From positions 31,133 to 95,132 of the IMG/VR virus record IMGVR_UViG_3300042691_032331: DNA of 64,000 bases, one strand, 5' to 3'. A program made the translations under genes and the position numbers. Positions 34,992 through 50,961 of this stretch are shown one piece after another. Position 1 is the stretch's first letter. Each line of letters starts with the position of its first letter. The stretch is from a virus. The notes beneath the pieces are model-generated. The model saw nothing but the letters and a program-made list of their open reading frames with translations. It had not been told where the DNA came from and made no database searches.

Positions 34992-35468
34992 TTAGCTAAC
35001 TTCTGTGCGCCCATTACCCAAATCACGTGATTGTATTGGACGAATGTTAGGGTCTCTATTACTTGGATCTGCATTTAATTGTTCATACATTTCAAGTGCG
35101 ATATTTCTACAGACCATTTGAAACCAGCGGTCCACAATTTCTGCATCAGTATCAGTATCTTTAAATTTGTATCCTGCTTTAATTAAATTAATTACAAATT
35201 TATCATTCCAATCCAATTCAAATGCACCGTCGTTAATATTGTTAGGATTTATTTCTACTTTGGTAATAGCAATATAAGGTTCACCTGCATTAGTGGCCTT
35301 TTCTTTTTCTGAAAGAACTTTTTCTTCCTTTTTACTTCTTGGTTGTTTCTTGATAGTTTCTTGTTCAGCAAGTTCTGTATCTAAAACAGGTTCTTTTCTA
35401 TTTTGTTTTTTAGATTCTGGCTTAGCTTCTTCAGGCTTCGCAAAGAATTTCTTTATGTTGTTTAGCAT
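34992..35468 (-). CDS. Conserved phage hypothetical protein
   Basis: GAFELDWNDKF...IVDRWF; start reassigned to MLNN. Confidence 0.6.
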   Translation of the reverse strand: MLNNIKKFFAKPEEAKPESKKQNRKEPVLDTELAEQETIKKQPRSKKEEKVLSEKEKATNAGEPYIAITKVEINPNNINDGAFELDWNDKFVINLIKAGYKFKDTDTDAEIVDRWFQMVCRNIALEMYEQLNADPSNRDPNIRPIQSRDLGNGRTEVS

Positions 35469-36483
35469 TTTTACTTTCCTCAAATAATGCAAAGCTTGCT
35501 AGATTCTTAGCCTTGCTCTCGCACATAATATCGAATTGATTATTAAAACTTAATGCCCATTCATTGCAAGCATTGTTCCAATAGTAATCACTATGAGCAC
35601 GTAGTTTTTGTTTCTTGTATCCTTGTTCTAATAACAGTTTCATGTCAGGAAAAGTATTTGAATCATGACCAACTAATAAATCTTCGCGGCTGACACTGTA
35701 ATGGCAAGCAGGGCGAACACCGCGCCAGCTATCAACCACTCGTTTAACGCTGTCGCTAGTTGGATCAATGTATACCCCCTCACGCACCCAATGATGATGT
35801 ATGTCAAGCACAATAGGCAATAAATCACTGAGACTGAGACAATCATCAAGTCCATGTACTATCTCCTCGTTTTCGATAGTGATACCGTTCCTTGCTTCGG
35901 GGCTGAGTCTTTTGTAGGCTTTTCGTATGCCTTCGGGACCTTGGCGACCTGAGATGTGTACATTGATTTTAAAGTCCTGGAACGAAGCGCCGTAGCCCAT
36001 CCATCTTGCCATGCTTGCATGATATTCAAACTCCTCAATAGATTTATTTACTACCTCTTCGCGGTCACTCGCAAGAACTACGAATTGGTCGGGATGAAAA
36101 CTTAAACGCACATCATTGGCACGGGCAGTTTCACCAAGTGGTCTGAACCAGTGTTCTAGTTTATTTTGAATGTCAGTAGATTGCCAAAATGGTTTCCAAT
36201 CATCCATAGTATAAAAACTAAGCATATCGCTAGTTAGACGAACCATGCGTAGTTCATGTGGCAATGTAGCAACACGCTTAATAAGATTGTGTGTATTCAT
36301 AATGTTACGGGCAGCAACATCAAGAACCTTTTCTTCGGCAACACGACGACTTTGGCGTTCAGCCCATGCCTTAGTAGTACCTCCTGTGTTAAGACCTTCG
36401 GTACTAGCAATCTCACCTTTTTTGTTTATCTCTGCCCACTTGCAAGCAAAGCCGATACGGTGTATATTTTGATTAAAACTCAT
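35431..36483 (-). CDS. UV damage endonuclease (UvdE/UvsE family)
   Basis: RIGFAC, RLSFHPDQFVVL, INVH, IENEE, VLDIHHH, HYS and HSDY motifs. Confidence 0.9.
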   Translation of the reverse strand: MSFNQNIHRIGFACKWAEINKKGEIASTEGLNTGGTTKAWAERQSRRVAEEKVLDVAARNIMNTHNLIKRVATLPHELRMVRLTSDMLSFYTMDDWKPFWQSTDIQNKLEHWFRPLGETARANDVRLSFHPDQFVVLASDREEVVNKSIEEFEYHASMARWMGYGASFQDFKINVHISGRQGPEGIRKAYKRLSPEARNGITIENEEIVHGLDDCLSLSDLLPIVLDIHHHWVREGVYIDPTSDSVKRVVDSWRGVRPACHYSVSREDLLVGHDSNTFPDMKLLLEQGYKKQKLRAHSDYYWNNACNEWALSFNNQFDIMCESKAKNLASFALFEESKNAKQHKEILCEA

Positions 36484-36761
36484 TGTTTAAGCATTTCAAT
36501 AATTTTTTTAGGATCCATTAATTCATGGGGCATTTTAACACATCTTTCAATTACTTCATACTCTACAATTTCCCAATTACTCATATCTGATCCTTTATTG
36601 TAAGGTCCTGGTGTATTCATTGTTAGCATCGATCTAAGCTTGCCTATTGTATCCCAGACTTTGCCAGTCTTTGACCAAACATCATACACTCCACCTTTAT
36701 GATAGAGACCAGTAGTTTTGTTGCGAATTTTGTAATAAGTAGCCATCTTAACAGTATACAA
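36480..36761 (-). CDS. Hypothetical protein
   Basis: YKIRNKTTGLY...WSKTGKVW. Confidence 0.55.
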   Translation of the reverse strand: MYTVKMATYYKIRNKTTGLYHKGGVYDVWSKTGKVWDTIGKLRSMLTMNTPGPYNKGSDMSNWEIVEYEVIERCVKMPHELMDPKKIIEMLKQ

Positions 36762-36770
36762 TAAAACTGA

Positions 36771-37598
36771 TTATTTGTCAACTTTAAGTAAATCTTGTAA
36801 TTTATACAACTTTGTCATGTACTTACTTGGATTGCTTAATACACTAGATTCAATGTCACCGTTTCTACGTGAACCATATTTTGTTTCAAAATCAACATTA
36901 TTGACTTCTTTGAATAGATTTACCATTTCTAATACTGTATTACCTTGTCCATGTCCTAAATTTTCTATTTTTTTAGTTGGATCTTCTATAGCATACTCAA
37001 TAGCTTGGCAAACTTCATTTACATGAATATAATCACGTTCGCAAGTTCCATCTTTTGTATTGTAGTCATTACCAAAAATAGTAAAATTACCTTCTTTGGG
37101 TGCCTTTAATAAGTTATAAAATAAGCCATCTGGGTTAGTAGGAGGAACAACAGTACTTCCAATAACATTGTAAAATCTAAATATAGTATAATCCATATTG
37201 AATTTTGTACACCATTCTACTGTACAATCTTCTGCCATTTTTTTACTTATACCATATGGACTTTTCATTTCTACTGCTGCACCTGTACTTGCTAATATAA
37301 AATTATTACAACGAATTCCTTCTAATACATTTAGAGTTCCTATAACATTCGTATTGTAATAATTAATAGGTTTAGATACACTTTCGCTAACATTTACTAA
37401 ACCAGCCAAATGTACTACTGCATCAAATTCATTTGCAAGGTGTATAAACAATCTTATATCCATGTTAACAAAGTTTTTTGTTTCTATTTTAGGTTCTGCA
37501 AAATCTAAACCGTATACTTCATACTTGTCCTCTAAAAATCTACATAAATGTGATCCTATATATCCTGAACTACCTGTTATTAATACTTTCTTTTTCAT
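36771..37598 (-). CDS. NAD-dependent sugar epimerase (GalE-like)
   Basis: TGSSGYIG, YGISK, FRFYNV and GTCERDYIHV motifs. Confidence 0.9.
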   Translation of the reverse strand: MKKKVLITGSSGYIGSHLCRFLEDKYEVYGLDFAEPKIETKNFVNMDIRLFIHLANEFDAVVHLAGLVNVSESVSKPINYYNTNVIGTLNVLEGIRCNNFILASTGAAVEMKSPYGISKKMAEDCTVEWCTKFNMDYTIFRFYNVIGSTVVPPTNPDGLFYNLLKAPKEGNFTIFGNDYNTKDGTCERDYIHVNEVCQAIEYAIEDPTKKIENLGHGQGNTVLEMVNLFKEVNNVDFETKYGSRRNGDIESSVLSNPSKYMTKLYKLQDLLKVDK

Positions 37599-38935
37599 AA
37601 TCCCTCAAATAAATCTTCAAGTGTTTCTTCCATAATTGGCATAAAATCAGGATCCTTTGAAAGATATGTGTCCTGATCAGTATACTTGACTTTAAATTTT
37701 CCTTTATTAGTGTATACACTTCGTATATCATCAATACAAACTATATTTCTATCTAAGCTATCAATAAAATCTTTGTACGTTGTTGTATGTTGTTGACATA
37801 TTTTAGCAGTATTACTATTGCTTTGTCTTGGTTCAAATGCATTAAAACAGTTGTTCCATTTATCAAAGTTTGTTATTTCTTGTGCAACTACTTTGTCGTG
37901 CTTACCTTCTTTATAATAACTCTCCGCAGTAGGAAACCTATCGTAAACATCTTTAATTACTTTTGTTGCCCATTTTTTATCCGTTGTATAAAATAACTCA
38001 CTATCAAAATTCTTTGTCCATCTCATTTTTTCCATTGCGATTGTGGGCAATTGACTTATTTGTTCAATAAATGCTAATCCATAACTTTCAACATTACTAG
38101 GATTGAATGCAACTCTGCAACTAGTAATGAAATCAACCTTCTCTTGCCCAATTACACCTACTGCAATTTTATAATCAACTCCTATTTTTTTCAATCTTTC
38201 TTCAAACTTTTTAGCACCGTTTGCATTGGTCATTACTCTAGCAGGTAGTTTAGTTTCTTCTATTACTTTAAGATAAATTTCGGGGTTTTTGCCTTCTTCC
38301 CATCGACCAATAAACAATACACCCTCACGTGGTTTATCATGTTTTTGTAGTAAGCCTGTTTCGGTGAATGGGATCGGTAAATGCCAAGCACCATTATCGA
38401 TTTCTATTTGATTAAATTTACTTTGTGTGCCAACATAGATGTCACTCATTTCTAATTGCTTACGCATCATTTCGTTAACTGAATTTAGAAATGGATTGTG
38501 TAATGTGTTGGGGAAAATTTGACTTTCTAAGTGTGTATATGCAATGATTTGAATAACATCTTCAAAACCCATTGTGCTTGCAACTTGTACGGTCTCATAT
38601 GTGTTACAAACTAATACATCATATAAGTTAGCACTTAACGCAGTAATAATTGCGTTACGAAAGTTAGCCATCCGTTCGTAGCAAAAGCTATCGCCATACA
38701 TAAAAATACTACTGTGGTTTGTATACGCATACGATTCCTCAGGATAAATAATGTTAGTGTTTAGTGATTTGATAAAATCATTGTCTTGTGGTTTTTTGTC
38801 AGTAATAATATCAACCTTAATATTATTTTCTTCCATCATTCTGATAAAGCTTTTAGTAAATTGACCAATACCACCATGTGGTACTAGTGTTTGATAACTA
38901 ACTAAAAAACCAATTCTTTTATCGTAAACTCTCAT
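37595..38935 (-). CDS. GT-B (GT4-like) glycosyltransferase
   Basis: PHGGIG, LFIGRWEEGKN and NPSNVESYGLAFIE motifs. Confidence 0.85.
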   Translation of the reverse strand: MRVYDKRIGFLVSYQTLVPHGGIGQFTKSFIRMMEENNIKVDIITDKKPQDNDFIKSLNTNIIYPEESYAYTNHSSIFMYGDSFCYERMANFRNAIITALSANLYDVLVCNTYETVQVASTMGFEDVIQIIAYTHLESQIFPNTLHNPFLNSVNEMMRKQLEMSDIYVGTQSKFNQIEIDNGAWHLPIPFTETGLLQKHDKPREGVLFIGRWEEGKNPEIYLKVIEETKLPARVMTNANGAKKFEERLKKIGVDYKIAVGVIGQEKVDFITSCRVAFNPSNVESYGLAFIEQISQLPTIAMEKMRWTKNFDSELFYTTDKKWATKVIKDVYDRFPTAESYYKEGKHDKVVAQEITNFDKWNNCFNAFEPRQSNSNTAKICQQHTTTYKDFIDSLDRNIVCIDDIRSVYTNKGKFKVKYTDQDTYLSKDPDFMPIMEETLEDLFEGL

Positions 38936-39780
38936 GTTCCCCATTCATTTTTAAATAGTGGTACTTGTAGTCTATCACTATAACGCAATCCATGTTTCAT
39001 TGCAAGTTCTGCTACAGTTCTATTATTGTAATGATACACACTTTCTACACCACCTACTGGCATCAGATATACATGACCACTGAAGCCTTCTTTTTTATAC
39101 AGTTGTATAACTTCTAACGCCTCATCAACATCATCTTTTGTAGCAACTACAAACTTAAGATAAGTATGACCTAAATCTTCATATTCACGAACAATGTCAG
39201 GACGTATTGCTTCTTCTCTAAGTTCGCCACTTACACTTAGTTTAGGACTCACACTGAATGTTAGATTATGATAACCATTTTTATGTGTCCATCGATATAA
39301 AAATAGTTTAAAGTCTGGTTGAAGTTTCTGTGTACCATTTGTTTCAAAAGTAATATCTCTACATTTCTTCATATTTGGTCTAGACAATAATTCTTCATAA
39401 CTGCGTTGCCAGCCTAATAATGGTTCACCACCTGTAATAACTAAGTGTTCACTACGCCATTCCTTAAATGGCAATGATCCTACTATAGAATCTGCAATAA
39501 CTTCTACATCGTACATTTTACTTAAATCTTTAAACGCAGGGTGCCAACTTGCATAGCTATCACATCCAGTACTAACAAGAGGTAGTTCGTGATAGAATTT
39601 AAACTCATGTACACGCTTTGCAACTTTATCTGCTTCAGTAGAACATTTGCCAGACGGCATACCAAATCCACTGCATGTAAAGTTACAACCATATGTTCTC
39701 AAGAAAACTGAGGGCACACCCATAAATCTGCCCTCACCTTGTATGCTATAAAATAATTCTGCTACTTTAATTTTACTCAT
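38932..39780 (-). CDS. queE: 7-carboxy-7-deazaguanine synthase (radical SAM)
   Basis: ELFYSIQGEG, FLRTYGCNFTC...CDS, ITGGEP, ETNGT and SVSPKL motifs. Confidence 0.9.
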   Translation of the reverse strand: MSKIKVAELFYSIQGEGRFMGVPSVFLRTYGCNFTCSGFGMPSGKCSTEADKVAKRVHEFKFYHELPLVSTGCDSYASWHPAFKDLSKMYDVEVIADSIVGSLPFKEWRSEHLVITGGEPLLGWQRSYEELLSRPNMKKCRDITFETNGTQKLQPDFKLFLYRWTHKNGYHNLTFSVSPKLSVSGELREEAIRPDIVREYEDLGHTYLKFVVATKDDVDEALEVIQLYKKEGFSGHVYLMPVGGVESVYHYNNRTVAELAMKHGLRYSDRLQVPLFKNEWGT

Positions 39781-40051
39781 AAATTTTTGACCATTGTTTA
39801 AGTTTTTCTTTTTTTCTTTCTTTTGCTATTTCTAGATTCTGTGATGATATCACATCTTGTTCTAATAGTATATCTATTAAGGCTAACACATCACCAATTT
39901 CCATTTCTAACATGGTTCTGTGTGTATGATTCATGTCTGATTTGTAATGTGCAGTATTCAACCCAAATCTACGAATTTTGCTTACTTCTACTATAACTTC
40001 CGCACATTCTTCTTGTAAGATGCCTAACGCTTCTTCTATTTTACTATTCAT
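39773..40051 (-). CDS. MazG-like nucleotide pyrophosphohydrolase
   Basis: QEECAEVI...EMEIGDVL. Confidence 0.7.
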   Translation of the reverse strand: MNSKIEEALGILQEECAEVIVEVSKIRRFGLNTAHYKSDMNHTHRTMLEMEIGDVLALIDILLEQDVISSQNLEIAKERKKEKLKQWSKIYE

Positions 40052-40332
40052 ACATACCTATCTACGAAAATACCTCTGATTGTAGCACGACTTAACAATC
40101 TTTGTTCTTTAATGGATGCAGCAAACTCATATTGTCGTATCCATTCTGTTTCCTTCATATAATGATAATTGTTTATAACTCTATTAGCTTCTTGTATAGA
40201 CAACAAACGATCTAAATCATCATAATATTTTTGTTTGTTTTCTTCTGCAATGGTAGAATTTATAGCACTGAGTCTATGTGATATTTGACTTACTTCATAG
40301 AGCAAAGTGCTTGGAACAGTGTGTATAATCAT
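40048..40332 (-). CDS. Hypothetical protein
   Basis: Coupled ORF. Confidence 0.45.
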   Translation of the reverse strand: MIIHTVPSTLLYEVSQISHRLSAINSTIAEENKQKYYDDLDRLLSIQEANRVINNYHYMKETEWIRQYEFAASIKEQRLLSRATIRGIFVDRYV

Positions 40333-41387
40333 GGGTCAAAATGAATTACTTTATTGTTGTAAAATTCATAAAAATATTCTAAACCTTTTTCCATAGGATT
40401 ATGTACAGGTCCATATTCGCTTGTGTTATTGTTATACAAGAACTTTCTGCCTTTATCCATGCGTTCAGCAATTTCATCATCTTCATAACATGTTTCCATA
40501 TATGCTGCTTGATGTGCTTCTACAAACTCACTTTCAAAATGACAGATATCTTCTGGATAATAAAACTCAACAATGTTTTTTGTTTTTTCTGGACTTATAG
40601 GATGTAATGTCGAAATTACTAGTACATTAGGATACCACTCTACCATGATGTTAGGATAGATAGTTAACCAGATTGCTCCGTATTCAGGAATCTGCCCACG
40701 TGTATAATCAAGTAAGGCTTTATGCCAACGTTTATAAACTGGTGTGCCTGGCGTATTTAGTTTATTTTTTATACCAACTGATTGAACACTATACATATGA
40801 TCGTGTTGCCAAGTTAAGTTGCTACAGTCAACAAAATTTCCTAATCCAGGATGAAAGGGATCAACATGATAATCATCTAGATAAACTTCAATAAACGTCT
40901 TCCAGTTATAATTACATTCATGTTCAACTCTGCTATGAAATTCATAACCAGTAAATGAAAAGTTTTTTACTAGATTTATTTTATTTAGGTGTGATACTAA
41001 ATCAAAATTATTTTTAGCAAATAACATGCCATTCCAATTTTGTATTTGATACTTTTTTAAGTCTTTTTCAGGACATTCATCAAAGTGTGGTGCAGCAATT
41101 AATTTTCCCTCTGTATTGTAAGTCCATCCATGTAATGGGCAAACTAAATTTGCTGCTGGTTTTGAACCTGATAATATAGTTGCTTGTCTATGTCTACAAA
41201 CATTACTAAAACATTCAATTCCATTTTTATTATGTATGAGAAACTTACCATCATTTTCTTGTGGTATTACATAAGTATCGTTCAAATTTTTTACAAATAG
41301 TTCGTGACCTAAATAACTATTTTGCTTAAATAAGTTTTTTTCTTTCTCTAAGATAAAATCATCAAAATAAAAGTGACTTGGCTTCAT
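40329..41387 (-). CDS. Rieske non-heme iron oxygenase alpha subunit
   Basis: CRH...CPLH Rieske ligands; NWK...DDYHVDPFH...EDD mononuclear-iron site. Confidence 0.88.
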   Translation of the reverse strand: MKPSHFYFDDFILEKEKNLFKQNSYLGHELFVKNLNDTYVIPQENDGKFLIHNKNGIECFSNVCRHRQATILSGSKPAANLVCPLHGWTYNTEGKLIAAPHFDECPEKDLKKYQIQNWNGMLFAKNNFDLVSHLNKINLVKNFSFTGYEFHSRVEHECNYNWKTFIEVYLDDYHVDPFHPGLGNFVDCSNLTWQHDHMYSVQSVGIKNKLNTPGTPVYKRWHKALLDYTRGQIPEYGAIWLTIYPNIMVEWYPNVLVISTLHPISPEKTKNIVEFYYPEDICHFESEFVEAHQAAYMETCYEDDEIAERMDKGRKFLYNNNTSEYGPVHNPMEKGLEYFYEFYNNKVIHFDP

Positions 41388-41698
41388 AATTTTGGTATAT
41401 TATATTCTCTTGTATATTGCGAATCTATGCTTCCGCTAACTTTAGGACTAGGATATTTAACACTACTTTCAACTTCAAAATTAAAATGTTTTAATATATT
41501 TCTTTGATCTATTTGACTACCACAAATTCTAGAACATTCTCTAACTATAAGTTCTGCAAATTCTTTTTGATTAACTTGCGGAACACCTAAAATTTCATAT
41601 GTTGATTGTTTCAAAAATTTATCAATTATATGCATCGTGATTCTCCAGTAAAGTACGTGATTGAATATCCCAAAATAATTCTGCTGCCCTTTTAGCAT
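41384..41698 (-). CDS. Small 'FAELIVxEC' family protein (start likely MHIID)
   Basis: EFAELIVREC...ILKHF. Confidence 0.5.
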   Translation of the reverse strand: MLKGQQNYFGIFNHVLYWRITMHIIDKFLKQSTYEILGVPQVNQKEFAELIVRECSRICGSQIDQRNILKHFNFEVESSVKYPSPKVSGSIDSQYTREYNIPKL

Positions 41699-41885
41699 GT
41701 TCTAAAGATATATATTGACCTAAATGTGCTTCATCGTCATGCCTAAATGTATATTCTCCTGTGTATGCAACTGAGTAAAATATTTCTTGCAATGCTATTT
41801 TACTAGCAAATGCAATTATTTTTCCAGTATCTTTATTGTAGTAGTAATATTTGTCACTTACACTTTTCCACTCATAATCATTCAT
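41622..41885 (-). CDS. Hypothetical protein
   Basis: LGQYISLEHAKRA motif. Confidence 0.5.
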   Translation of the reverse strand: MNDYEWKSVSDKYYYYNKDTGKIIAFASKIALQEIFYSVAYTGEYTFRHDDEAHLGQYISLEHAKRAAELFWDIQSRTLLENHDAYN

Positions 41886-42199
41886 TCTTGTTCCTCAAAT
41901 TCAAATTCAAACTGATTATGACCAAAATAGTCTCTAAATTGATCTTTAAAATCATCATCATTTTGAATCCAATGCCTGATTGCATCTTGATCTGTTTCAT
42001 CTAGGTCATAAAAATAACCTCTGAAATAACTTGATTGTTCAATGCTGGCTTCTTCTCTTATTGCTTCAGCCTCGTCCCAATCTTCTTCGTTATCACTATC
42101 ACTTAGTGAATCTGCTTTGATCCATGTATCAAATGCATCATTGTGTGCATCTTCGTTTAGATTATTGATGATATCAAAAGTTTCTTCTAATGTTTTCAC
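41882..42199 (-). CDS. Very acidic small protein
   Basis: D/E-rich, 105 aa. Confidence 0.5.
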   Translation of the reverse strand: MKTLEETFDIINNLNEDAHNDAFDTWIKADSLSDSDNEEDWDEAEAIREEASIEQSSYFRGYFYDLDETDQDAIRHWIQNDDDFKDQFRDYFGHNQFEFEFEEQE

Positions 42200-42711
42200 G
42201 CAAACAAATCCTCATTCCATTCACGATGTCCTTCACGAAAAGCCATATTGCTTTGAGTTTCACGTACTTCTACACGATAACACCAAAGACGTTCAGCTTC
42301 ACCTGGTCCCCACATATCAGGAATATACACGCCATTCACATATTTGTAAAGCATATCGGCTAAGCCCTCACAGCCTAATTTAGGTAGAATGGTTAATTTA
42401 GCCATTTTCTTTTGTTCAAGTAACTTAAATGTTTCCATTTCTGGATCATCCTGTGCTACAAGTAATGTATGGTCAAATTGATCTTCTAATATCTTTTTTA
42501 ATTCTTTTAAGCCACCATAATCAGCAGCCCAATTGCGAACATCTAAATGATCAGTACCAAAATAAAATTTCATATTAAAACTATAACCATGTATTAAATT
42601 GCAATGACTATCAGCACGCCATTGACGATATGCACATGGAAAGCTATCATGATATTCTTTTGTTGAAGTGTATTTGTAAACTCTTGGTGGGTAAATTTCA
42701 TTTAAATACAT
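42196..42711 (-). CDS. queD: 6-carboxy-5,6,7,8-tetrahydropterin synthase
   Basis: AYRQWRADSHCNLIHGY, DYGGLK, FDHTLL and VRET motifs; GGAG SD before MYLNE. Confidence 0.88.
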   Translation of the reverse strand: MYLNEIYPPRVYKYTSTKEYHDSFPCAYRQWRADSHCNLIHGYSFNMKFYFGTDHLDVRNWAADYGGLKELKKILEDQFDHTLLVAQDDPEMETFKLLEQKKMAKLTILPKLGCEGLADMLYKYVNGVYIPDMWGPGEAERLWCYRVEVRETQSNMAFREGHREWNEDLFA

Positions 42712-43039
42712 TATATTCTCCATTAATGAAAGTTTCATATTCTTTTATTTCTTCCATCAACTTTGGAAATTTTTCATGTAATAACTTTGTATGCAATTCA
42801 CTAATTAATGTATCATACAAATCACTATTGAATACATCTTCAGTCATAATTGGTTCTAAATATTTTTCATCCATCCAACTGGGTGGATTTTCAAAGGGAT
42901 AACCAATTAAATTAAGTAAAATATTAAATCGCATTTGACTTGTTACGATTTGTTTTTCTAATACCTCAATTGGCTGTGAAGATAAAATTTCGTATCTTCT
43001 TAAGATTTCTTGTGTTACGGGGTCATTTAAATTTGTCAT
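42698..43039 (-). CDS. Hypothetical protein directly upstream of queD
   Basis: AAGGAG SD before MTNLN; start reassigned. Confidence 0.55.
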   Translation of the reverse strand: MTNLNDPVTQEILRRYEILSSQPIEVLEKQIVTSQMRFNILLNLIGYPFENPPSWMDEKYLEPIMTEDVFNSDLYDTLISELHTKLLHEKFPKLMEEIKEYETFINGEYNVFK

Positions 43040-43105
43040 ACTTTGTCTCCTTTGTAAGCAAGACATGCAGAATTTTTATAGCGGGGTGAATGTCAGTAGA
43101 CCGCT
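43037..43105 (-). ncRNA. Candidate preQ1-class-I-like riboswitch / cis-regulatory pseudoknot
   Basis: AGCGG-UCUACUGACAUUCACC-CCGCU-AUAAAAA-UUCUGC-AUGUC: P1 stem, A-rich tail and pseudoknot overlapping an anti-SD stem. Confidence 0.55.
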
Positions 43106-43332
43106 TATTTTTTATCAAAATATTCTTTATATTGTATATATTTGTCAAAATCTTCTTGACCTAAGAAGAATTTTTTTTGAAAGTTTGTAACAATTTTTAC
43201 ACAGTGCTCTATGTTTTTCTCTGGTAAAGTTTTATTCACAAATTCTGTATTACAACGCCAATATAGATACTCATGGTCTCTAAAACCAACATCATCTAAC
43301 ATCATAGCAAAAACAAAATAAATGTCAATCAT
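43105..43332 (-). CDS. Hypothetical protein
   Basis: Coupled ORF. Confidence 0.4.
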   Translation of the reverse strand: MIDIYFVFAMMLDDVGFRDHEYLYWRCNTEFVNKTLPEKNIEHCVKIVTNFQKKFFLGQEDFDKYIQYKEYFDKK

Positions 43333-43528
43333 TATTTAAATTTGATAAGGTAACTAAAATTTTGACTTGTTCTCTAAGAGAATTTAACATTTCTAAATTA
43401 AGCATAAGTTGGTTAGAAGAATCCATACCCTTTTCTTCTAATACAAATTGTGTCATTACGCTCAACCCATACAATTCTGCCATTTTTGAAATAGCTTTGT
43501 GTAAGGATTCTATATTTTTTTCACTCAT
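43325..43528 (-). CDS. Hypothetical protein
   Basis: Coupled ORF. Confidence 0.4.
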   Translation of the reverse strand: MSEKNIESLHKAISKMAELYGLSVMTQFVLEEKGMDSSNQLMLNLEMLNSLREQVKILVTLSNLNND

Positions 43529-43737
43529 TATTTTTGTTTATATTTACTACACATTAATTCAAATTCAGATGTTTTACTTTGAATTAATCCATAACTTGCT
43601 TTTGGATTCTGTTGTCTATATATTTGTTTTTCTTTTTCTACACATTCATCAAATTTATTTGTGCATCCTACTAATAAAAGTGTTGATAAAATTAAAGTGT
43701 ATTTCATGTTAAGCTCCTTTAACTTGCGCTGTTGCAA
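43528..43737 (-). CDS. Small lipoprotein (start likely MKYTL)
   Basis: Lipobox LVGC. Confidence 0.55.
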   Translation of the reverse strand: MQQRKLKELNMKYTLILSTLLLVGCTNKFDECVEKEKQIYRQQNPKASYGLIQSKTSEFELMCSKYKQK

Positions 43738-44173
43738 CTCTTTTTCTTAAACTACTTGAACTAAAACTATGGTCACGATGATTATATATTATTTCTATAT
43801 TTCTCATCATACATTCTTTTTTGCCACTAAACTCTTGTTCTTTGTATTCAACACCTAGTATACGCACATCTATGGGTAATGTCAATAATATATCTACCAA
43901 ATCTTGTTCAGTTTGATATATTACAACTTCATCTACATAGCGTGTTGCAGCCAATTGAATTTGCCTTTCGACAATACTTTGAACTGGTTTATTTTTAGTA
44001 TCTGGTCTGTCTATTGTTGGATCAGTCTGTAATCCTGCAATTAAATAATCACAATGATTTTTAGCTTCTGCTAACATAGCAATATGACCTGCATGTAACA
44101 GGTCAAATGTACTAAAAGTTATTCCTATTTTTAATCCTTTTTCTTTAAGGTCTTTTATCTTGTTGAATATCAT
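43709..44173 (-). CDS. Cytidylyltransferase (TagD/glycerol-3-phosphate cytidylyltransferase-like)
   Basis: TFDLLHAGH (HxGH), YLIAGLQTD and RDHSFSSS motifs. Confidence 0.88.
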   Translation of the reverse strand: MIFNKIKDLKEKGLKIGITFSTFDLLHAGHIAMLAEAKNHCDYLIAGLQTDPTIDRPDTKNKPVQSIVERQIQLAATRYVDEVVIYQTEQDLVDILLTLPIDVRILGVEYKEQEFSGKKECMMRNIEIIYNHRDHSFSSSSLRKRVATAQVKGA

Positions 44174-44301
44174 TTTCTTTTAATTGACAATCGCACTCAC
44201 TATTGATACAAGCACCTGTGCAGGGTGATCCTGAATTTAACATCAGTACTATAAGACCATACAATACTGCTAAAAATAATAATACTGATATTATGTACAT
44301 T

Positions 44302-44979
44302 TTATCTATTCATTCTTGCAATTTGATAGAACTCATTGCGTACTTCAGGATCAGTTTTGAATCCTCCACCTAATCTAACAGTTACAGTAGAACTACCAGT
44401 ATCTTCTACACCTCTACTTTTAACACAATAATGTTGTGCATCAATCATAACTGCTACATCATTGGTTTCAAGTATAAAACAAAGTGCATGAAAGATTTGT
44501 TCAGTTAGTCTTTCTTGAATCTGTGGACGCTTACTAAAGTATTCAACGATTCTATTAATTTTACTTAGTCCAAGTACTTTTTCTTTTGGCACATAAGCAA
44601 CTGTAGCAAGACCATCAATTACTACAAAATGATGTTCGCAATTACTTTGTACACTTACATTACGTTCTACAACCATCTCATTGTATTTCATTTTGTTGTC
44701 AACAGTAGTGCATTTGGGGAATGCTTCGTAATCAAGACCCCAAAAGATTTCATTGACATACATTTTTGCAACTCTAGTTGGAGTTTCAATTAAACTATCA
44801 TCACTCATGTCTAACCCTAAAGTTTTCATGATTTGATGAAAGTAACCTTCAATAGCATCTATTTTTTCTTTGCGTTCCCACTTGTTAGGTTTCATGGGAG
44901 TTTCTACACCCATTTTTACTAGATATTCATGGACTTTTTGACCCAACTCAGGATCGGTTTTAGTTTTGTTGTATGACAT
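44302..44979 (-). CDS. folE: GTP cyclohydrolase I
   Basis: TPTRVAKM, CEHH, GLSKINR, QIQERLT and HYCVKSRGV motifs. Confidence 0.96.
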   Translation of the reverse strand: MSYNKTKTDPELGQKVHEYLVKMGVETPMKPNKWERKEKIDAIEGYFHQIMKTLGLDMSDDSLIETPTRVAKMYVNEIFWGLDYEAFPKCTTVDNKMKYNEMVVERNVSVQSNCEHHFVVIDGLATVAYVPKEKVLGLSKINRIVEYFSKRPQIQERLTEQIFHALCFILETNDVAVMIDAQHYCVKSRGVEDTGSSTVTVRLGGGFKTDPEVRNEFYQIARMNR

Positions 44980-45055
44980 TTTGATTTCCTTCCTTACACG
45001 GATTTAATTGTTGAAGTTTGCAACCTTTGTGTTGCATAATTATTTATTCTTTCTT

Positions 45056-45670
45056 TTAGTTGATTTTAATTTCTCTACAGTCGGGGTAGTTGTAGAACTT
45101 TTCTTCTTGCGGCGTGATTTCGTTTTTGGTAAAGAGATTGATTCCTCTGACACATTCTTCTGGGCGCATGTAATAGTGAAATCCCAACTCAAATTCACTT
45201 TGTGCAGACCATGGATTGTAGGTGAATATGTCTCGTCCATCCATACGCATTTTACTTGCGGCTTTATAGAAATTGATATCATCTGTTAGTATACATCCTC
45301 CACGACCTATTTGTAAAGGCTTTGTGTGACCAAAACTTAAACATTGAATTTGCCCTTGCTTGTACATATTGGGTTCAAACATTCTTGCACTATCCCATAT
45401 ATTAGTGCCGATAAAATTATATTCATTACGCCATTTTGTATCAGTTAATTCGTAATTAACGCCCAATTTATGCATTGTCATTAATACACTAAGATAAGTT
45501 TTTGCTGGAAATTTTACGGATTTAAAATCTGATAATCTAAAAGCAATTTCTATCGCATGTGTGCAACAATCCGTTGTAATACAATATGGTGCACCTGTGT
45601 ATTCTGATATTATTTTTTCAAAGTGTAATATTGAATTATATGGATTTTTATAATCTTTTACATCAACCAC
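45056..45670 (-). CDS. Short DegT/DnrJ-family PLP-dependent aminotransferase
   Basis: FEKIISEYTG...CTHAI...WDSA...LSFGHTKPLQIGRGG (PLP Lys). Confidence 0.75.
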   Translation of the reverse strand: MVDVKDYKNPYNSILHFEKIISEYTGAPYCITTDCCTHAIEIAFRLSDFKSVKFPAKTYLSVLMTMHKLGVNYELTDTKWRNEYNFIGTNIWDSARMFEPNMYKQGQIQCLSFGHTKPLQIGRGGCILTDDINFYKAASKMRMDGRDIFTYNPWSAQSEFELGFHYYMRPEECVRGINLFTKNEITPQEEKFYNYPDCREIKIN

Positions 45671-46172
45671 TATATGTACCTGTTATTTGTAGTGTATGTC
45701 TAGCTTCTGTTCCAAAGTTTCCTGCATAATGTTCAGTATTGTAATTCCAATAAACATAATCACCTTTATTCCAATTTACTATACCTGTACCATCAACTTC
45801 TAAATAATGTCCACTCTTCCAATCTTCTAAAAAAACTATGCATCTATAAATTAAGTTTGGATTAGTTAACTTATGTACTTCTTGATACCGAGTATATGTA
45901 TCTCTATGTAGTGGTAGTGCTTCTAAAGGATTTTGTTTAAAAAAACTTATGCCTACGTGTTGCCAATCTTTCATCAAAGTTAAAAAGGGCAATGCATAGT
46001 CAGGTGTGGGTTGACTCATATCATAAACTCCACCTGTGTATTTTAAACCTTTCCCATATTTTTCATCCCATATAGGAATCATGTCTTGATTCGGTATAGG
46101 TTTCCAAATATAGTTTAAGTTTTTAAAACTATCATCCCACCATGGGTCAACATGCCCTTGTCCCCATTTCAT
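45663..46172 (-). CDS. 2OG-Fe(II) oxygenase-like protein
   Basis: LPLHRD (HxD)...H...NFG...R.TLQITG double-stranded beta-helix pattern. Confidence 0.7.
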   Translation of the reverse strand: MKWGQGHVDPWWDDSFKNLNYIWKPIPNQDMIPIWDEKYGKGLKYTGGVYDMSQPTPDYALPFLTLMKDWQHVGISFFKQNPLEALPLHRDTYTRYQEVHKLTNPNLIYRCIVFLEDWKSGHYLEVDGTGIVNWNKGDYVYWNYNTEHYAGNFGTEARHTLQITGTYSG

Positions 46173-46381
46173 TTTGTTTCTTCTGTTTTTTCAATTTTCT
46201 TTTCTTTTTTAGAAATCATTGGGCTATAGTCACTAAACATATTTTCTATTTTCCAATTAATAGGTTTCCAAAATTTTGCAAACATATTGTTTAAGAAAAG
46301 AACCATTACGCCCATTAAACAAAATGATAATCCAATGAGTAGTGTACCTACTAAAAATGCTGCTGTATCGTTAATATCCAT
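46169..46381 (-). CDS. Small membrane protein
   Basis: Single TM helix. Confidence 0.55.
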   Translation of the reverse strand: MDINDTAAFLVGTLLIGLSFCLMGVMVLFLNNMFAKFWKPINWKIENMFSDYSPMISKKEKKIEKTEETK

Positions 46382-46418
46382 CTTTATTTTCCTTTAAACC
46401 TTTTAGTTCTGATATGTA

Positions 46419-47621
46419 TTAGTATTTTGACTCACGGGTATGTTTTCTGTAATCTACATCGTTACGTGAATAATTCTCTCCCATGCCTAAGATTATATCA
46501 CAGATACGATCAATTGTCTTATCAGTGTAATCACTTATTTTACCCATATTATTGTGTTGATGTTTTAATAACGGGATTAATTTAGTAAGTGCATCGTTCA
46601 ATGACCAAGGTACGTATAAGCGTTCATTATCATTAGCAAAAGATTCAGGGAAGCTGCGATAAGCAGGGTATAATACATTACACCCAAGAGTATCGGCTTC
46701 GGAAACTGTATTGCTAACCCAATCTTGTAAAGCACAGTTAAACAATACACGGCTATCGTTGAGTAAATTATAGTAATCATTTTTCTCTAGATCCTCGTAT
46801 ATAACAAGTTTACCTTCATTAACTAGTCGTTGTGTTCTTTCTAGGTAACTACTATTATTTGATTTTAATTTTCCACCACTCAATATACAGAACTCAACAT
46901 CATTATGATTATAGCCTTCCCAATAAGCCATCTTACTTAATCTATGAAATTCTTCAATCAAATCCATATAGAAGTCAGGTTGCTTTTCTTGGTCCCAACG
47001 TGCTGCAAATGCTACACGTAATTTTCTTTCACTGAATGGCTTTAGAGGACCTTCTATTCGTTCTCGTACTTCATCTTTACCATATGCTAAACCACTTATA
47101 TTGTAGATTGGTGCAGTCCAGCCTGCAATCTTCATATGCATTACCATTTCTTCACTGCTTGCAAGTATACCGTCTACCCACGTGTCAACCATTTTTTCAT
47201 AATGACCCATCCACTTTGCCATATTCCATACATGAACGAAATCATCGGGGTCAATACTTTGTGCAAGACAGCGAACAAAAACACGGGGACGCATATGATT
47301 AGGGATTTGATCCATAATATAAGGTAAGCTCTCGATACCTGGTTGAAACATGTCCTCAAAGTATATAACATCTGCATGATTAATTTCTCCTGCCTTCATT
47401 TTACGAACGATATTCATCATTTGACTCATGCCAAAATAACTACGACCATGTGCATCAAGCACTTGACCAGTTACAATAGCTTTATCATTGCTTAGTGTTT
47501 CACCAGGTACTACTTCATAGTCTATACCTCTGCGTTTAAATACACGTTCATTCCATTCTTGTAATTGCAATGTATAACGTGCTTTGTAGGGTTCGAGACC
47601 CATGTAATATAATTTACGCAT
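46419..47621 (-). CDS. GT-B glycosyltransferase
   Basis: FAARWDQEKQP, LFNCALQDWVSNTVSEA and YPAYRSFPE motifs. Confidence 0.8.
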   Translation of the reverse strand: MRKLYYMGLEPYKARYTLQLQEWNERVFKRRGIDYEVVPGETLSNDKAIVTGQVLDAHGRSYFGMSQMMNIVRKMKAGEINHADVIYFEDMFQPGIESLPYIMDQIPNHMRPRVFVRCLAQSIDPDDFVHVWNMAKWMGHYEKMVDTWVDGILASSEEMVMHMKIAGWTAPIYNISGLAYGKDEVRERIEGPLKPFSERKLRVAFAARWDQEKQPDFYMDLIEEFHRLSKMAYWEGYNHNDVEFCILSGGKLKSNNSSYLERTQRLVNEGKLVIYEDLEKNDYYNLLNDSRVLFNCALQDWVSNTVSEADTLGCNVLYPAYRSFPESFANDNERLYVPWSLNDALTKLIPLLKHQHNNMGKISDYTDKTIDRICDIILGMGENYSRNDVDYRKHTRESKY

Positions 47622-48114
47622 CTTCTTCCTTAAAGTCTATAACATTACCTTCATCATCTGCACAGATAATTTTAACTTTATTGCCATTCTCATCTTCAAT
47701 AAGAATAGGACCCCATACCCATGCTTCAGTGTCAGTTTGATCCCATCCTTCTTCTCCCTCTAATACTTCATAAACACTAGAATCACCAAATCTTTCTAGT
47801 AATTCTTCTTGTTCATCTTCATCCATATCTTCTGGAAAGTCGAAATCCTCCCAACATCCATCACTCATAACGTCAAGTTCAACATTGACGATGTTGTTAA
47901 CACAACAATCATACATGTTAATACTATCACATTTATCATCGCCATTTGGAACATAAGTAAATTCAAACTGCGGAGGATTATCGTCATCAGTCTCTACAAA
48001 GAAACTACTCCAACGAAATCCTGTTTTACGAACGATTGAATTACCATCTTTATAGTAATATTCATGTTCTTCACAAGATTTTTTATAATACGTTGAAACT
48101 TTCCAGTTAGCCAT
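47614..48114 (-). CDS. Acidic hypothetical protein
   Basis: D/E-rich; coupled to the glycosyltransferase gene. Confidence 0.55.
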   Translation of the reverse strand: MANWKVSTYYKKSCEEHEYYYKDGNSIVRKTGFRWSSFFVETDDDNPPQFEFTYVPNGDDKCDSINMYDCCVNNIVNVELDVMSDGCWEDFDFPEDMDEDEQEELLERFGDSSVYEVLEGEEGWDQTDTEAWVWGPILIEDENGNKVKIICADDEGNVIDFKEEDA

Positions 48115-48239
48115 TTTACTTTATTTCCTTTCCCCATATTTTAGGAAGAATAACTGCTAGAAATTTTCCATAGGCTGCAAACATACCAAAGAAAATAACT
48201 GCCTCTAGAAGTCCCAATAAAAGATCATTATAATTCATA

Positions 48240-48446
48240 TTAGATTTTTGTATCTTCAAGCCACTGATCTTTAGGCTGTTTGCCTGCAAGTTGCTTTGTA
48301 TGTTGACGATATGAAAAACTACGCATATCGTATAATTGTGCTTCATCAAACTTATAACCATAGTCAACACAGAATTCTCTGTATTTTTCTAGGTCTTCGA
48401 AAATTTGACGAACTTTAGGATTAGGTTGAATTACTGGTTTGCCCAT
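48240..48446 (-). CDS. Conserved phage hypothetical protein
   Basis: IFEDLEKYREFCVDYGYKFDEAQLY; AAGGA SD. Confidence 0.6.
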   Translation of the reverse strand: MGKPVIQPNPKVRQIFEDLEKYREFCVDYGYKFDEAQLYDMRSFSYRQHTKQLAGKQPKDQWLEDTKI

Positions 48447-48459
48447 TTGTGTATTTCCT

Positions 48460-48888
48460 TTAAATTGAAAGTTGTTGATAAGGTTTTGTTAAATTATACT
48501 GAATTTTGCATCCGTTTTCATTATCTTCGGATACCTCAATTACTACATTACGATTAGGATACTTATTTGCAATTTGGATGTATAAATCATCTGCAATCAT
48601 TTCGCATGATTTATGATTTAATTCTAAAATCGCATTATCGTACAACCCTTGTAGCCATCTTTTGAATTGGATGAATTCAATGTCCCTGTCATTATGGAAC
48701 ACATCAATGTACACCCTGAAGTGGAAGATATGACGATGAGGGAAAGACAGAAAACTAACATCTTGTAGTTTAGGATCTTCCCCAGCTGCTGGATATCTGT
48801 GTATGCCTTCTTTTTGAAACGTAACATAAATTTGCCTCATAGCAGATTCTTTAATGCGTTCTACTTTGTCTCTTTCTTCATTTATCAT
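48460..48888 (-). CDS. Second T-fold (QueD-paralog) protein, candidate DpdL-like CDG decarboxylase
   Basis: LSFPHRHIF (LxxxHRHxF), HNDRDIEF, SCEMIA and EVSEDNENG; lies near the dpdA-like gene. Confidence 0.6.
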   Translation of the reverse strand: MINEERDKVERIKESAMRQIYVTFQKEGIHRYPAAGEDPKLQDVSFLSFPHRHIFHFRVYIDVFHNDRDIEFIQFKRWLQGLYDNAILELNHKSCEMIADDLYIQIANKYPNRNVVIEVSEDNENGCKIQYNLTKPYQQLSI

Positions 48889-48889
48889 A

Positions 48890-49096
48890 TTATTCACCAA
48901 AGTCTACTCGTTCGTGATCATGTTCCCATTGTAACTTATTTAGGCGACTTATTTCGTCTTTATATTTTAATTTTTGCTTTTTCATTTCAGCAATTTTATC
49001 CGCATCAAAATTAGGATTTTTTTCTGCTTCTATAATTTGTTTGTCCAATTGCCTATGTGTTTCTGTAAGACTGGCAATTCTATTTCTATAAGGCAT
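48890..49096 (-). CDS. DUF465/YdcH-like coiled-coil protein
   Basis: HRQLDKQI...MKKQKLKYKDEI. Confidence 0.7.
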   Translation of the reverse strand: MPYRNRIASLTETHRQLDKQIIEAEKNPNFDADKIAEMKKQKLKYKDEISRLNKLQWEHDHERVDFGE

Positions 49097-49105
49097 ATAT
49101 TCTCC

Positions 49106-50572
49106 TTAAACAATTGAAAAAAGTTCATTGAATGATGTTCTTGCATTCACGGTTTTCTTACCACTAAATCCCTGACTACCTGATTGCATTTGCATCCATA
49201 ATCTACTATAACTATCAATTACATCATGACTAGCACTCCTTGACTTTTGAGAAAAAACTTCGTTGATAACATCTTTAAATTTAATACCTGTATTATTTTG
49301 TTTAATCATAGCAGGAATAACACCTTGTGCATATTTACGGTTAGCCTCTTGCACAGCACTTATATGCTGATAAACATTATGTGCTTGTAACAAAGTATAA
49401 CTTAATGTATCCCAACTTGTTTTTGTTTCTTTACCATGTTGACCAATAAAGCCAACACCCCTGTAGCATAAATCTTTAATCAACAGTTTATCAGTAATAG
49501 GACTATTTGTAAAGTCTTTATGGATATCATCACCCAAAACAACATCTATGAATTTTCTATTATCCGTTGCATATTTTTTATCTTCAGCCGTTTTCTCCAT
49601 ACTATATGACCATTTCTTTTCATGCTCAATATTATTTTTGAAATAAGCCAAACCTTTTGCAGCACTAAAAAATGGGCTTGCACAATCAAATGTAATTATT
49701 AATTTTGGGTTATGATATTTTCTAATAGCTTGTTGTATATCTGTAAACAATACTGCATATTCTAAAATGCTTACACCTAAACAGTGTATAAGGTCATGTT
49801 TACCTTCTTGCAATAAACCATCATAGATTATATCAACCATACGCCTTAAGGTAAGATGTATATCTACTTTGTTTTGTCCCCCAAATGCCCAACCATTAAA
49901 ATGATTATCAGGGTATATTGCAGGATCACAATATTTTTTCATTTCCTGATACCAATCATCGCTTTCTTTATGTGTGGTACCTTGTAATACGTTTAAGAAC
50001 TTACAATTACCATTGCGATTAGTTATAAAATATTCATTATTAATATGTGTGGCTTTGATTGCATCGTTGATGTTATGTATACCATGTAAAGGTATTGCTT
50101 TAGTGTTTAGGAAACTTTGACTAGGAATATCTAAACACATACCATAATCCATGTATGTATCCATCCATGTCAATACTGCTTTACGTTTCTCCATTGCTTT
50201 AGGGCAATTAGGATTCTTCCAATCAGCAGGCCACTGACCTTTAAGAATCTGAAATCCACCGCTATCACCCAACATGAAAGTATTATTTCTGTCACGCTTG
50301 CGTATAATACTTTCACCATGATCATCTTTGGTAGTGTCTAAGTTAGCATGACCTGCACTATACAAACCCCATTTGTAAGTGTACAATCCTTTTTGATCAT
50401 TAAGAAAGTTTAGTGCCTCAAGATCAGGTATACCTTGAGGTATTCTATCGTCAGGAAAATATTTTTCTCCCTCACGTTGTCTACCTAATCCACTGATAAA
50501 GAAACTGCTTACAGCAGGCAAAAATAATGCCCAATTAGGATCTTGTTGTTGTGATAAATTAGTTTGTTCCAT
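49106..50572 (-). CDS. dpdA: DpdA-like 7-deazaguanine DNA transglycosylase (TGT paralog)
   Basis: GDSGGFQ, CLDIP, VLQG, WAFGG, HCLG and TFDCAS TGT-fold motifs, clustered with folE/queD/queE. Confidence 0.75.
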   Translation of the reverse strand: MEQTNLSQQQDPNWALFLPAVSSFFISGLGRQREGEKYFPDDRIPQGIPDLEALNFLNDQKGLYTYKWGLYSAGHANLDTTKDDHGESIIRKRDRNNTFMLGDSGGFQILKGQWPADWKNPNCPKAMEKRKAVLTWMDTYMDYGMCLDIPSQSFLNTKAIPLHGIHNINDAIKATHINNEYFITNRNGNCKFLNVLQGTTHKESDDWYQEMKKYCDPAIYPDNHFNGWAFGGQNKVDIHLTLRRMVDIIYDGLLQEGKHDLIHCLGVSILEYAVLFTDIQQAIRKYHNPKLIITFDCASPFFSAAKGLAYFKNNIEHEKKWSYSMEKTAEDKKYATDNRKFIDVVLGDDIHKDFTNSPITDKLLIKDLCYRGVGFIGQHGKETKTSWDTLSYTLLQAHNVYQHISAVQEANRKYAQGVIPAMIKQNNTGIKFKDVINEVFSQKSRSASHDVIDSYSRLWMQMQSGSQGFSGKKTVNARTSFNELFSIV

Positions 50573-50961
50573 TAAGGTATTTGCATTGATTGTACTGATG
50601 CTTTTGTATATGCCTGTTCTTCTGGTTTTTCTTCTGATTTAATAAGAGTTTTAACCATTTCAATTTGATTTTTCTTTTCGTTGATTTGATTAACTAAATC
50701 ATTTATAGCTGGATGAGTTTTAGCCAATCCTTCTAGTTCTTTTTCTTCCTGCATTTTTCTTTGCGCCCATTCAAAAGCTTCAAGCATTACAGGATTAGTA
50801 GTTAGTGTTATATTATTGTCAAGTGGTATCCATCCTGTGCCAGTGCTAACTTCTAGTCGTTTCATGCTACCATTCCATTGAATAGCACCTGTGTTACTAG
50901 GTTGTGAGTAAGTATTGACTTGATACACTAATGGCATATTGGTTGATGTAATATTAATCAT
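50572..50961 (-). CDS. Hypothetical protein with C-terminal coiled coil
   Basis: Coupled ORF. Confidence 0.55.
   Translation of the reverse strand: MINITSTNMPLVYQVNTYSQPSNTGAIQWNGSMKRLEVSTGTGWIPLDNNITLTTNPVMLEAFEWAQRKMQEEKELEGLAKTHPAINDLVNQINEKKNQIEMVKTLIKSEEKPEEQAYTKASVQSMQIP

Follow-up and report, generated by a model that had tools for sequence, protein, structure and literature searches.

A preQ1-I-Like Pseudoknot in the queD Leader of Uncultured T4-Like Phages Is a Candidate Translational ON Switch

Introduction

Riboswitches are almost entirely bacterial. Those that act as ON switches typically sense a substrate that is to be consumed; in the adenine riboswitch of Vibrio add, folding of the aptamer, stabilised by the ligand, frees the ribosome-binding site. 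T4-like phages, for their part, use leader pseudoknots, of which that of gene 32 is an autoregulatory operator, and the RegA protein for translational control. Here, we describe a leader RNA of ca. 50 nt that precedes queD-like genes of uncultured T4-like phages. The copy from which the analysis started lies at positions 43105-43037 (minus strand) of a 64,000-nucleotide stretch of viral DNA (the window) that is part of a 95-kb IMG/VR virus record, which is ca. 27% complete. A preliminary description made from the letters of the window alone had proposed that the leader of an open reading frame (ORF) and queD pair forms an RNA similar to class I preQ1 riboswitches, and the minus-strand letters on which this proposal was based were found to be identical to those in the window by direct reading.

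The closest described system is the class I preQ1 riboswitch (preQ1-I, Rfam RF00522), whose defining features were taken from PMC11625349. According to this source, a specificity cytosine is located directly 5′ of the P1 3′ strand, where it follows U (type I) or A (types II and III), and all known preQ1 classes are OFF switches (PMC11625349). As detailed below, the structure of the phage RNA is kept through compensating changes in well over a hundred uncultured phages. On balance, we read it as an RNA switch that acts in cis from the 5′ end of the queD message in these phages and by which a small molecule probably turns translation ON.

Conserved RNA Element Upstream of queD

The QueD-like protein encoded downstream of the element has at least 590 relatives in IMG/VR, from which 80 loci were fetched by QueD similarity (80-94% identity). 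Directly upstream of queD, the related loci share a short conserved stretch that corresponds exactly to the extent of the candidate. Fifty-nine distinct copies were aligned (alignment A1), and a covariance model, R1, was built from this alignment. With R1, one copy was found in 79 of the 80 loci, every time upstream of queD and 25-41 nt from its start codon. The phage's own record contains a single R1 copy as well, i.e., there is one copy per genome. A second set was picked by the DNA pattern of the motif alone, independently of the gene, and supplied 80 additional full motifs. The same type of queD gene was located downstream in 77 of 82 members of this pattern-chosen set, and the exceptions carried other T-fold genes. 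Sequences pooled from all four sets yielded alignment A3, which comprises 132 distinct phage sequences. R1 scores on family members range from 25 to 69 bits, and several visibly homologous divergent members (L382, L386, L389-391 and L440) were overlooked by the model.

In the window, helix P1 is formed by AGCGG (43101-43105, minus strand) and CCGCU (43080-43084, minus strand), both strands being defined by sequence and covariation; they are separated by a 16-nt loop, and the tail that follows opens with AUAAAAA. The first A of the P1 5′ strand is also the last base of the TAA stop codon (43107-43105) of an upstream 75-aa ORF. P1 is 100% paired in the 59 distinct sequences of A1, with three out of five pairs changed on both sides, which was matched by none of 500 shuffles, and 98.6% paired in A3 (columns 4-8 with 29-33). 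The middle pair of P1 occurs in A3 as C-G (52 sequences), U-A (42) or A-U (36). When states of this pair were placed on the tree of the downstream T-fold protein, at least 32 switches were counted, while 126 of 127 sequences were still paired, and the same gene-tree analysis revealed 53 distinct strand combinations of P2. The changes therefore represent many independent events rather than one inherited change.

The second helix, P2, connects the loop with the tail, where GACAU (43094-43090) is complementary to AUGUC (43066-43062). In A1, P2 is 77.5% paired versus 55.3% after shuffling, all five pairs are compensatory, and when tails were swapped among sequences, the observed complementarity was never reached (0/5000 permutations). 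The helix extends further: an L3 loop ending with CCGC is always accompanied by UCGUC at L2 and one ending with CUGC by UCAUC, a correspondence that adds two base pairs to P2, C-G and A-U (G-C in variants), on the other side of a conserved U.C opposition. In A3, the C-G pair of this CA/UG extension is present in 126 sequences, the A-U pair in 118 and its G-C variant in 8. The complete 5′ strand of P2 in the window (43087-43094, minus strand) thus consists of GACAU, the conserved U opposite C (43089) and CA (43088-43087), and the complete 3′ strand (43062-43069, minus strand) consists of UG (43069-43068), the conserved C opposite U (43067) and AUGUC.

For the full pseudoknot in A3 (n = 132), 92.6% of cells are paired compared to 74.9% in shuffled alignments (0/500). 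Double-change cells number 308 versus 77, and the covariation score is 0.476 versus 0.142 (both 0/500). Changes on both sides are present in 9 of 12 pairs, and controls in which the strands were slid are at most 54% paired. Since the G-U pairs that are frequent in P2 in this alignment would be A.C mismatches on the other strand, the functional strand is the sense strand of queD. Both the P1 helix and the GACAU/AUGUC pseudoknot of the preliminary description are borne out by these results: the covariation analysis of related queD leaders that it had suggested revealed compensatory changes in both helices of a conserved leader.

The family can be described as an H-type pseudoknot with a 5-bp P1, a P2 of 5 bp plus U.C plus 2 bp, L2 of the form YC and L3 of the form WUAMAAAYUC. 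L1 is 3-9 nt long (UCUACU in the window, 43095-43100, minus strand, as defined by A1 and A3) and follows the pattern N-C-U plus 2-6 variable nucleotides. Its first base can be A, C or U, and nearly all members have C-U at its positions 2-3 (invariant in A1 as C10 and T11). L2 is UC in most relatives, CC in the window (43085-43086, minus strand, from A3 and variants in relatives) and in others, and AC in a few (L380, L386 and L404); its last C is at least 90% conserved (C24, nearly invariant in A3). L3, which in the window reads AUAAAAAUUC (43070-43079, minus strand, alignment A3), has an A-rich start (WUAMAAA) in most members, L440 (CGAAUCC) being an exception. The A at position 3 of L3 and the terminal U-C are invariant in all 132 sequences (A32, T38 and C39), and T31, A34 and A36 are nearly invariant in A3. 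Altogether, 7 positions of A3 are invariant and conservation reaches at least 90% at a further 13, many of these 20 being unpaired; judging from the alignment, such bases point to a putative binding pocket or tertiary contacts.

Expression Platforms

In each of 129 distinct leader-plus-platform sequences, the P2 3′ strand continues into a helix covering the ribosome-binding site. Three unrelated platform designs can be distinguished, all of which re-use the P2 3′ strand to hide the Shine-Dalgarno (SD) sequence or the start codon. In class A (54 leaders), CCUAUR..YAUAGG forms over the SD, with G-C/A-U covariation. In class B and its variants (ca. 68 leaders), UGUCAUC..GAUGGCA, or the covariant UGUCAUUG..CAAUGGCA, forms over the start codon, and a class B member with a GUG start still pairs. 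Class C (five leaders, the window included) carries a UGUCUUGCU..AGGAGACA hairpin.

The hairpin of the window, UGUCUU-G-CUU...AAG-GAGACA (UGUCUU..AGGAGACA; 43044-43065, minus strand), has a calculated stability of -5.2 kcal/mol and pairs AAGGAG (43052-47), including the SD core AGGAG (43051-43047), ahead of the AUG at 43039-43037. As the UGUC at 43065-43062 is common to the P2 3′ strand and this hairpin, the two folds are mutually exclusive, and the stability of the window platform falls from -5.2 kcal/mol (-6.5 kcal/mol in the fold of the leader set) to -1.5 kcal/mol once the P2 strand is taken. The same holds for the family: when the five P2 3′ nucleotides were barred from pairing in 127 leaders, the mean platform stability changed from -8.2 to -3.4 kcal/mol, the sequestering fold losing 4.9 kcal/mol on average and at least 2 kcal/mol in 93% of the leaders. 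The SD is located 15-35 nt downstream of the P2 3′ strand. Because P2 and the masking helix exclude each other, formation of the knot corresponds to the ON state, and because no intrinsic terminator is predicted downstream of the window leader, control is expected to be translational. From the window alone, it had been proposed that the pseudoknot strand competes with a stem hiding the SD and that the wiring is translational ON; both points agree with the covariation and with three independently designed expression platforms. In the Vibrio add adenine riboswitch, too, the 3′ strand of the aptamer also takes part in a helix over the SD or the start codon, so that folding frees the ribosome-binding site, but the add aptamer is built around a three-way junction instead of an H-type knot and has no sequence relation to the phage RNA.

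A promoter-like box (NATAAATA, ATAAGTA or TATAAT) is present in 82 of the 129 leaders, mostly 5-11 nt upstream of P1, and would therefore place the knot at the very 5′ end of the mRNA. In the window, a chance-level σ70-like match, TTGACA-18-AATATT (43148-43119), and a late-type ATAAATA before folE were all that was found. A T4 late promoter at TATAAAAA was considered and ruled out, since late promoters are invariant at positions that differ among the members (WUAMAAA).

The class C hairpin is also a re-usable module, as UCUUGCUUA..AGGAGA is present in three copies in the window with 0 expected by chance. In the queD/ORF113 leader, the UCUUGCUUA..AAGGAGA hairpin with its unpaired G occupies 43063-43046 (minus strand) and is lengthened by outer UG..CA pairs contributed by P2. 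The second and third copies (13848-13866 and 15801-15821, both on the minus strand, ca. -3 kcal/mol each) precede genes for Hsp20 (13841-13401) and Hsp70/DnaK (15793-13904), respectively. It seems that a single phage has used a ROSE-like module for masking the SD more than once.

This module brings up an explanation without any ligand, in which a 5′-terminal knot forms unaided and serves as a folding device, thermosensor, 5′-end stabiliser or ribosome standby site, in a balance with the SD- or AUG-hiding helix that is either fixed or dependent on temperature. We consider it unlikely, though by no means negligible. The calculated stabilities of P2 and of the sequestering helix are comparable, the knot would be at the extreme 5′ end of the transcript, and the hairpin shared with the hsp20 and dnaK leaders has a ROSE-like, temperature-sensitive design: as in ROSE thermometers, U(U/C)GCU stands opposite the SD in a weak hairpin with an unpaired G (-5.2 kcal/mol in class C). 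The likeness is, however, limited to the platform of 5 out of ca. 129 leaders; classes A and B, which make up the great majority, are without a heat-shock-type hairpin, and the conserved upstream aptamer has no counterpart in ROSE elements. Moreover, 20 strongly conserved positions (7 invariant and 13 at least 90% conserved) and the U.C opposition within P2 are more than a stability element needs, while the exclusive link to one enzyme family suggests that metabolic rather than physical sensing takes place.

Genes Behind the Leader and Distribution of the RNA

In the window, the gene directly behind the leader is ORF113 (42698-43039, minus strand), an orphan. Its product has no match in Pfam, NCBIfam or PHROG and no relatives in IMG/VR, and none were found by tblastn in the 80 related loci; a single homologue (86% identity) was identified among 5.8 billion proteins. 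The QueD-like gene (42196-42711, minus strand) encodes a PTPS T-fold protein of the C-x3-HGY type that matches PF01242 (57.8 bits) and phrog_2389; the match to TIGR03367 (35 bits) is below the 89-bit cut-off of that model. Judging by the N-termini of relatives, translation likely starts at ATG 42711 (MYLNEIYPP...). The gene has its own SD, GGAGAA, and a 14-nt overlap with the end of ORF113, whose stop codon is TGA 42700-42698. ORF113 appears to have been inserted between the leader and queD. Of the ORF-queD pair to which the preliminary description assigned the leader, the queD part holds in the related loci (79/80), whereas the pairing with ORF113 is specific to the window and absent from the 80 related loci.

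Unrelated genes have been inserted repeatedly at the junction of leader and queD: in addition to ORF113 (window 42698-43039), a SAM methyltransferase gene (L019:2181-3011) and an 85-aa ORF (L079:131-388) are found there. Genes inserted at this point therefore come under the switch.

The motif precedes only PF01242 T-fold (PTPS/QueD) genes, which are of four sequence types. The common phage QueD-like protein (window 42196-42738, minus strand) has C-x3-HGY where canonical QueD/PTPS proteins have C-x3-HGH, the last His being replaced by Tyr. The types found as exceptions are a canonical 141-aa QueD with C-x3-HGH (L184), a 183-aa protein with C-x3-HGH (L193) and a 196-aa protein with C-x3-HGY (L185). 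Among relatives of the two larger types, the motif was detected in 12/80 and at least 34/80 loci, with more divergent aptamers. In L184, one leader RNA is followed by the canonical QueD (CSHLHGH) and then by an HGY-type paralogue.

Records of T4-like (Gp23-bearing) uncultured phages are the only ones in which the RNA was found. Five large records with the motif (192-350 kb) were tested for the T4-type capsid protein Gp23, two of these records being at least 93% complete, and all five encode it; FolE is encoded in four of the five. A search with a 19-nt pattern of one representative genome per prokaryotic species retrieved 78 matches, which is about the chance level by estimate; only two of the matches were full motifs. 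One of the two is located on a 183-kb contig of a Haliscomenobacter metagenome-assembled genome (MAG) that also encodes Gp23, and the contig therefore looks like a binned T4-like phage genome. Two contigs of this MAG (G006), C1 (L108) and C3, encode T4-type Gp23 (331 and 324 bits), and the MAG is a possible hint to the host of the phage contig C1. In isolated phages, there was no DNA match, and no motif was present at the queD locus of phage ACP17. The negative results on the distribution are bounded by the exact pattern of the genome scan and by the modest sensitivity of R1. No description of the RNA was found in the searched literature, the coverage of which excludes most subscription journals.

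The locus to which the leader belongs (window 35431-51689, minus strand) encodes UvdE, an NAD epimerase, a GT1-like glycosyltransferase-like protein, a QueE-like radical SAM protein, a Rieske oxygenase, a cytidylyltransferase, FolE (a solid assignment), an aminotransferase-like fragment and the QueD-like protein. The core of T4 late promoters, ATAAATA, is strongly under-represented in the window when both strands are counted (19 copies versus 43.8 expected; 100/100 shuffles had at least 19), as would be expected if a T4-like phage were under selection to avoid spurious late promoters. One copy, the nearest upstream one on the minus strand, is located just upstream of folE (45041-45047, minus strand).

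In T4-like phages, an operator worked by a protein has to be considered as well: a phage or host protein, such as the T-fold enzyme, a RegA-like repressor or another RNA-binding protein, would bind the knot and shift the balance between P2 and the sequestering helix. Apart from Gp23 in 5/5 large records, such an operator could be favoured by the relative ACP17, which encodes regA beside its queD region, and the conserved loop bases could equally be protein contacts. The leader pseudoknot of T4 gene 32 offers a precedent, as there, too, translation of a T4-like phage message is governed by an H-type knot at its 5′ end. That knot, however, nucleates cooperative binding of a single-stranded DNA-binding protein on an unstructured A/U-rich tract, whereas in the phage queD leader the region downstream is structured by the sequestering helix and the product is a metabolic enzyme. 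The motif is unchanged before four types of T-fold proteins, which argues against autoregulation through a co-evolving protein surface, no candidate for the binding protein accompanies the motif in the loci examined, and the 3′ half of the aptamer is nearly identical to the core of a small-molecule riboswitch. We therefore regard a protein-operated switch as rather improbable. Explanations without a ligand and with a protein both fit the ON wiring; they explain the conservation of unpaired bases and the link to one enzyme family less well than a metabolite sensor does.

Comparison with Class I preQ1 Riboswitches

The overall layout that the preliminary description had compared with class I preQ1 riboswitches is supported. 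Like preQ1-I, the phage RNA is a small H-type pseudoknot whose 5-bp P1 is topped by two G-C pairs, with both helices covarying here. The base directly 5′ of the P1 3′ strand is a conserved C, which in most phage members follows a U as in type I, and L3 has an A-rich start, AUAAAAA; some phage members share AGAGG...UC-CCUCU-AUAAAAA with real aptamers. Genes of queuosine/7-deazaguanine metabolism form the context of both RNAs, that of the phages being located upstream of PF01242 QueD/PTPS genes.

The Infernal search against Rfam models that had also been suggested gave no support for membership in this class. At gathering thresholds (39 bits for RF00522), there was no relevant Rfam match in the window. 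Even at E ≤ 10, no preQ1 model matched 251 nt around the site or 131 nt of L080, the most preQ1-like relative, and the four weak matches of RF00522 on the 95-kb record (at most 14.5 bits) are all away from the site. Models for preQ1-II, preQ1-III, SAM-II, SAM-V, guanidine-III and fluoride riboswitches produced nothing at E = 10 or at gathering. In the reciprocal test, R1 was run with filters off on five genuine preQ1-I aptamers (L451-L455), which score 38-53 bits with RF00522, and gave at most 6.5 bits (E 0.5-0.7). Thus, no significant score is obtained in either direction. The weak R1 matches on L452 and L454 coincided exactly with the true aptamers and covered model positions 4-36, i.e., P1 through the start of the A-rich L3.

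The two RNAs also differ in their parts. L1 of preQ1-I is short (2-3 nt) and starts with a conserved U or UU, while L1 of the phage RNA is N-C-U plus 2-6 nt. P2 of preQ1-I has 2-4 pairs instead of the 5 + 2 pairs around the conserved U.C in phages. L3 of preQ1-I ends with CUA and passes straight into the P2 3′ strand, whereas that of the phage RNA ends with YUC, the U-C being invariant. Finally, the P2 3′ strand of preQ1-I contains the SD, borders on it or allows a terminator to form, so that ligand binding switches expression OFF, whereas in the phage RNA it is the partner of an anti-SD/anti-AUG helix and the sign is ON; so far, the phage RNA is also restricted to uncultured T4-like phages.

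Could the phage RNA nevertheless be a divergent but genuine preQ1-I riboswitch, a far member of RF00522 that still binds preQ1 (or preQ0)? The shared features listed above, best seen when L080 is compared to the genuine L452 (H-type knot, 5-bp P1 with G-C pairs at its top, UC and AUAAAAA), the coincidence of R1 matches with true aptamers in L452 and L454, and the link to queD would all be expected in this case. Against it stand the silence of RF00522 at the site and the reciprocal scores (at most 6.5 bits versus 44-69 bits for members), an L1 without the conserved U(U), a seven-pair P2, the different end of L3 and the ON wiring, opposite to that of all known preQ1 classes (PMC11625349). It would also be odd for a biosynthetic gene to be activated by the end product. 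A genuine preQ1-I riboswitch is, on this evidence, very unlikely. We conclude that the resemblance to preQ1-I is real but partial and that the phage RNA is a preQ1-I-like variant rather than a member of the class; the resemblance may stem from a shared ancestry of the core or from convergence.

Discussion

Taken together, the phage queD leader combines an aptamer-like pseudoknot with platforms that are mutually exclusive with it. A chance hairpin, or conservation due to a promoter, a peptide or an antisense RNA, can be dismissed: although the fold of the single sequence is unremarkable (z = -0.77) and CTATAAAAAT-like strings are common in this AT-rich DNA, chance is excluded by the compensatory covariation in both helices, the G-U pairs fix the strand, and the AUG within P2 is not conserved (AAGCC, UGCC and CGCC variants exist).

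In a cis-acting switch of the kind that we favour, a small molecule would bind the knot and lock P2, and the locked P2 would keep the sequestering helix from forming, so that translation of the T-fold (QueD/PTPS) enzyme would be turned ON. The ligand would probably present a guanine-like face to the conserved C that precedes the P1 3′ strand; candidates are 7,8-dihydroneopterin triphosphate or another pterin related to it, and 7-deazapurines with the exception of preQ1. With an ON sign, a metabolite that is upstream in the pathway or resembles a substrate is a better fit than an end product, and since ON switches usually sense the substrate and the C is conserved, a pterin (such as the QueD substrate) or a non-preQ1 deazapurine is favoured. 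More specifically, and tentatively, the RNA may represent a new, phage-specific riboswitch class, in which a preQ1-I-like core has been rewired as a translational ON switch that senses a pterin or 7-deazapurine metabolite other than preQ1, such as 7,8-dihydroneopterin triphosphate or 7-carboxy-7-deazaguanine (CDG).

Several observations weigh against a metabolite-sensing ON switch or limit what can be claimed for it. ON wiring is equally expected of a switch without a ligand or one operated by a protein. When folded alone, the leader of the window (81 nt) is no better than chance (minimum free energy of -12.2 kcal/mol, reached by 38 of 200 shuffles); a single sequence is therefore unable to carry the claim, whose significance comes from comparison. 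The alignments, in turn, are partly anchored by structure, because the regular expression used to collect motifs demanded pairing of P1, and the register of P2 was picked by best pairing. This inflates the percentages of paired positions, but not the contrasts with shuffled, slid and swapped controls, and just 1 of 80 loci failed the P1-pairing expression through a mismatch. In the window, queD is 340 nt away from the switch and has its own SD, so its control is indirect at best; there, the switch would directly gate the orphan ORF113 and would reach queD only through the 14-nt gene overlap. As to the pathway, no QueC or TGT/DpdA domain was detected with Pfam and PHROGs in the 95-kb record, ca. 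27% complete, and no QueC or TGT was detected with Pfam in two near-complete motif-bearing relatives (331 and 350 kb). With no match to QueC, TGT or DpdA, the choice of ligand is a weak guess. The end product of the pathway may be derived from CDG or may be something else, and the role in phage DNA modification proposed in the preliminary description is an assumption.

If our reading is correct, the switch gates the entry of GTP-derived carbon into a phage deazapurine pathway. Among abundant riboswitch classes, it would be the first to be known from viruses alone, and among relatives of the preQ1 fold the first of the ON type. The RNA is tiny (ca. 50 nt) and comes with rich natural covariation, so it is readily testable and could be crystallised, and the identity of its ligand would clarify what giant T4-like phages make with FolE, QueD and QueE. 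It would also provide a natural experiment, in which a known aptamer fold, preQ1-I, has been re-tuned in its ligand contacts and inverted in its regulatory sign. More generally, a conserved and abundant class that is confined to phages would show that viruses evolve metabolite sensors of their own to time auxiliary metabolism.

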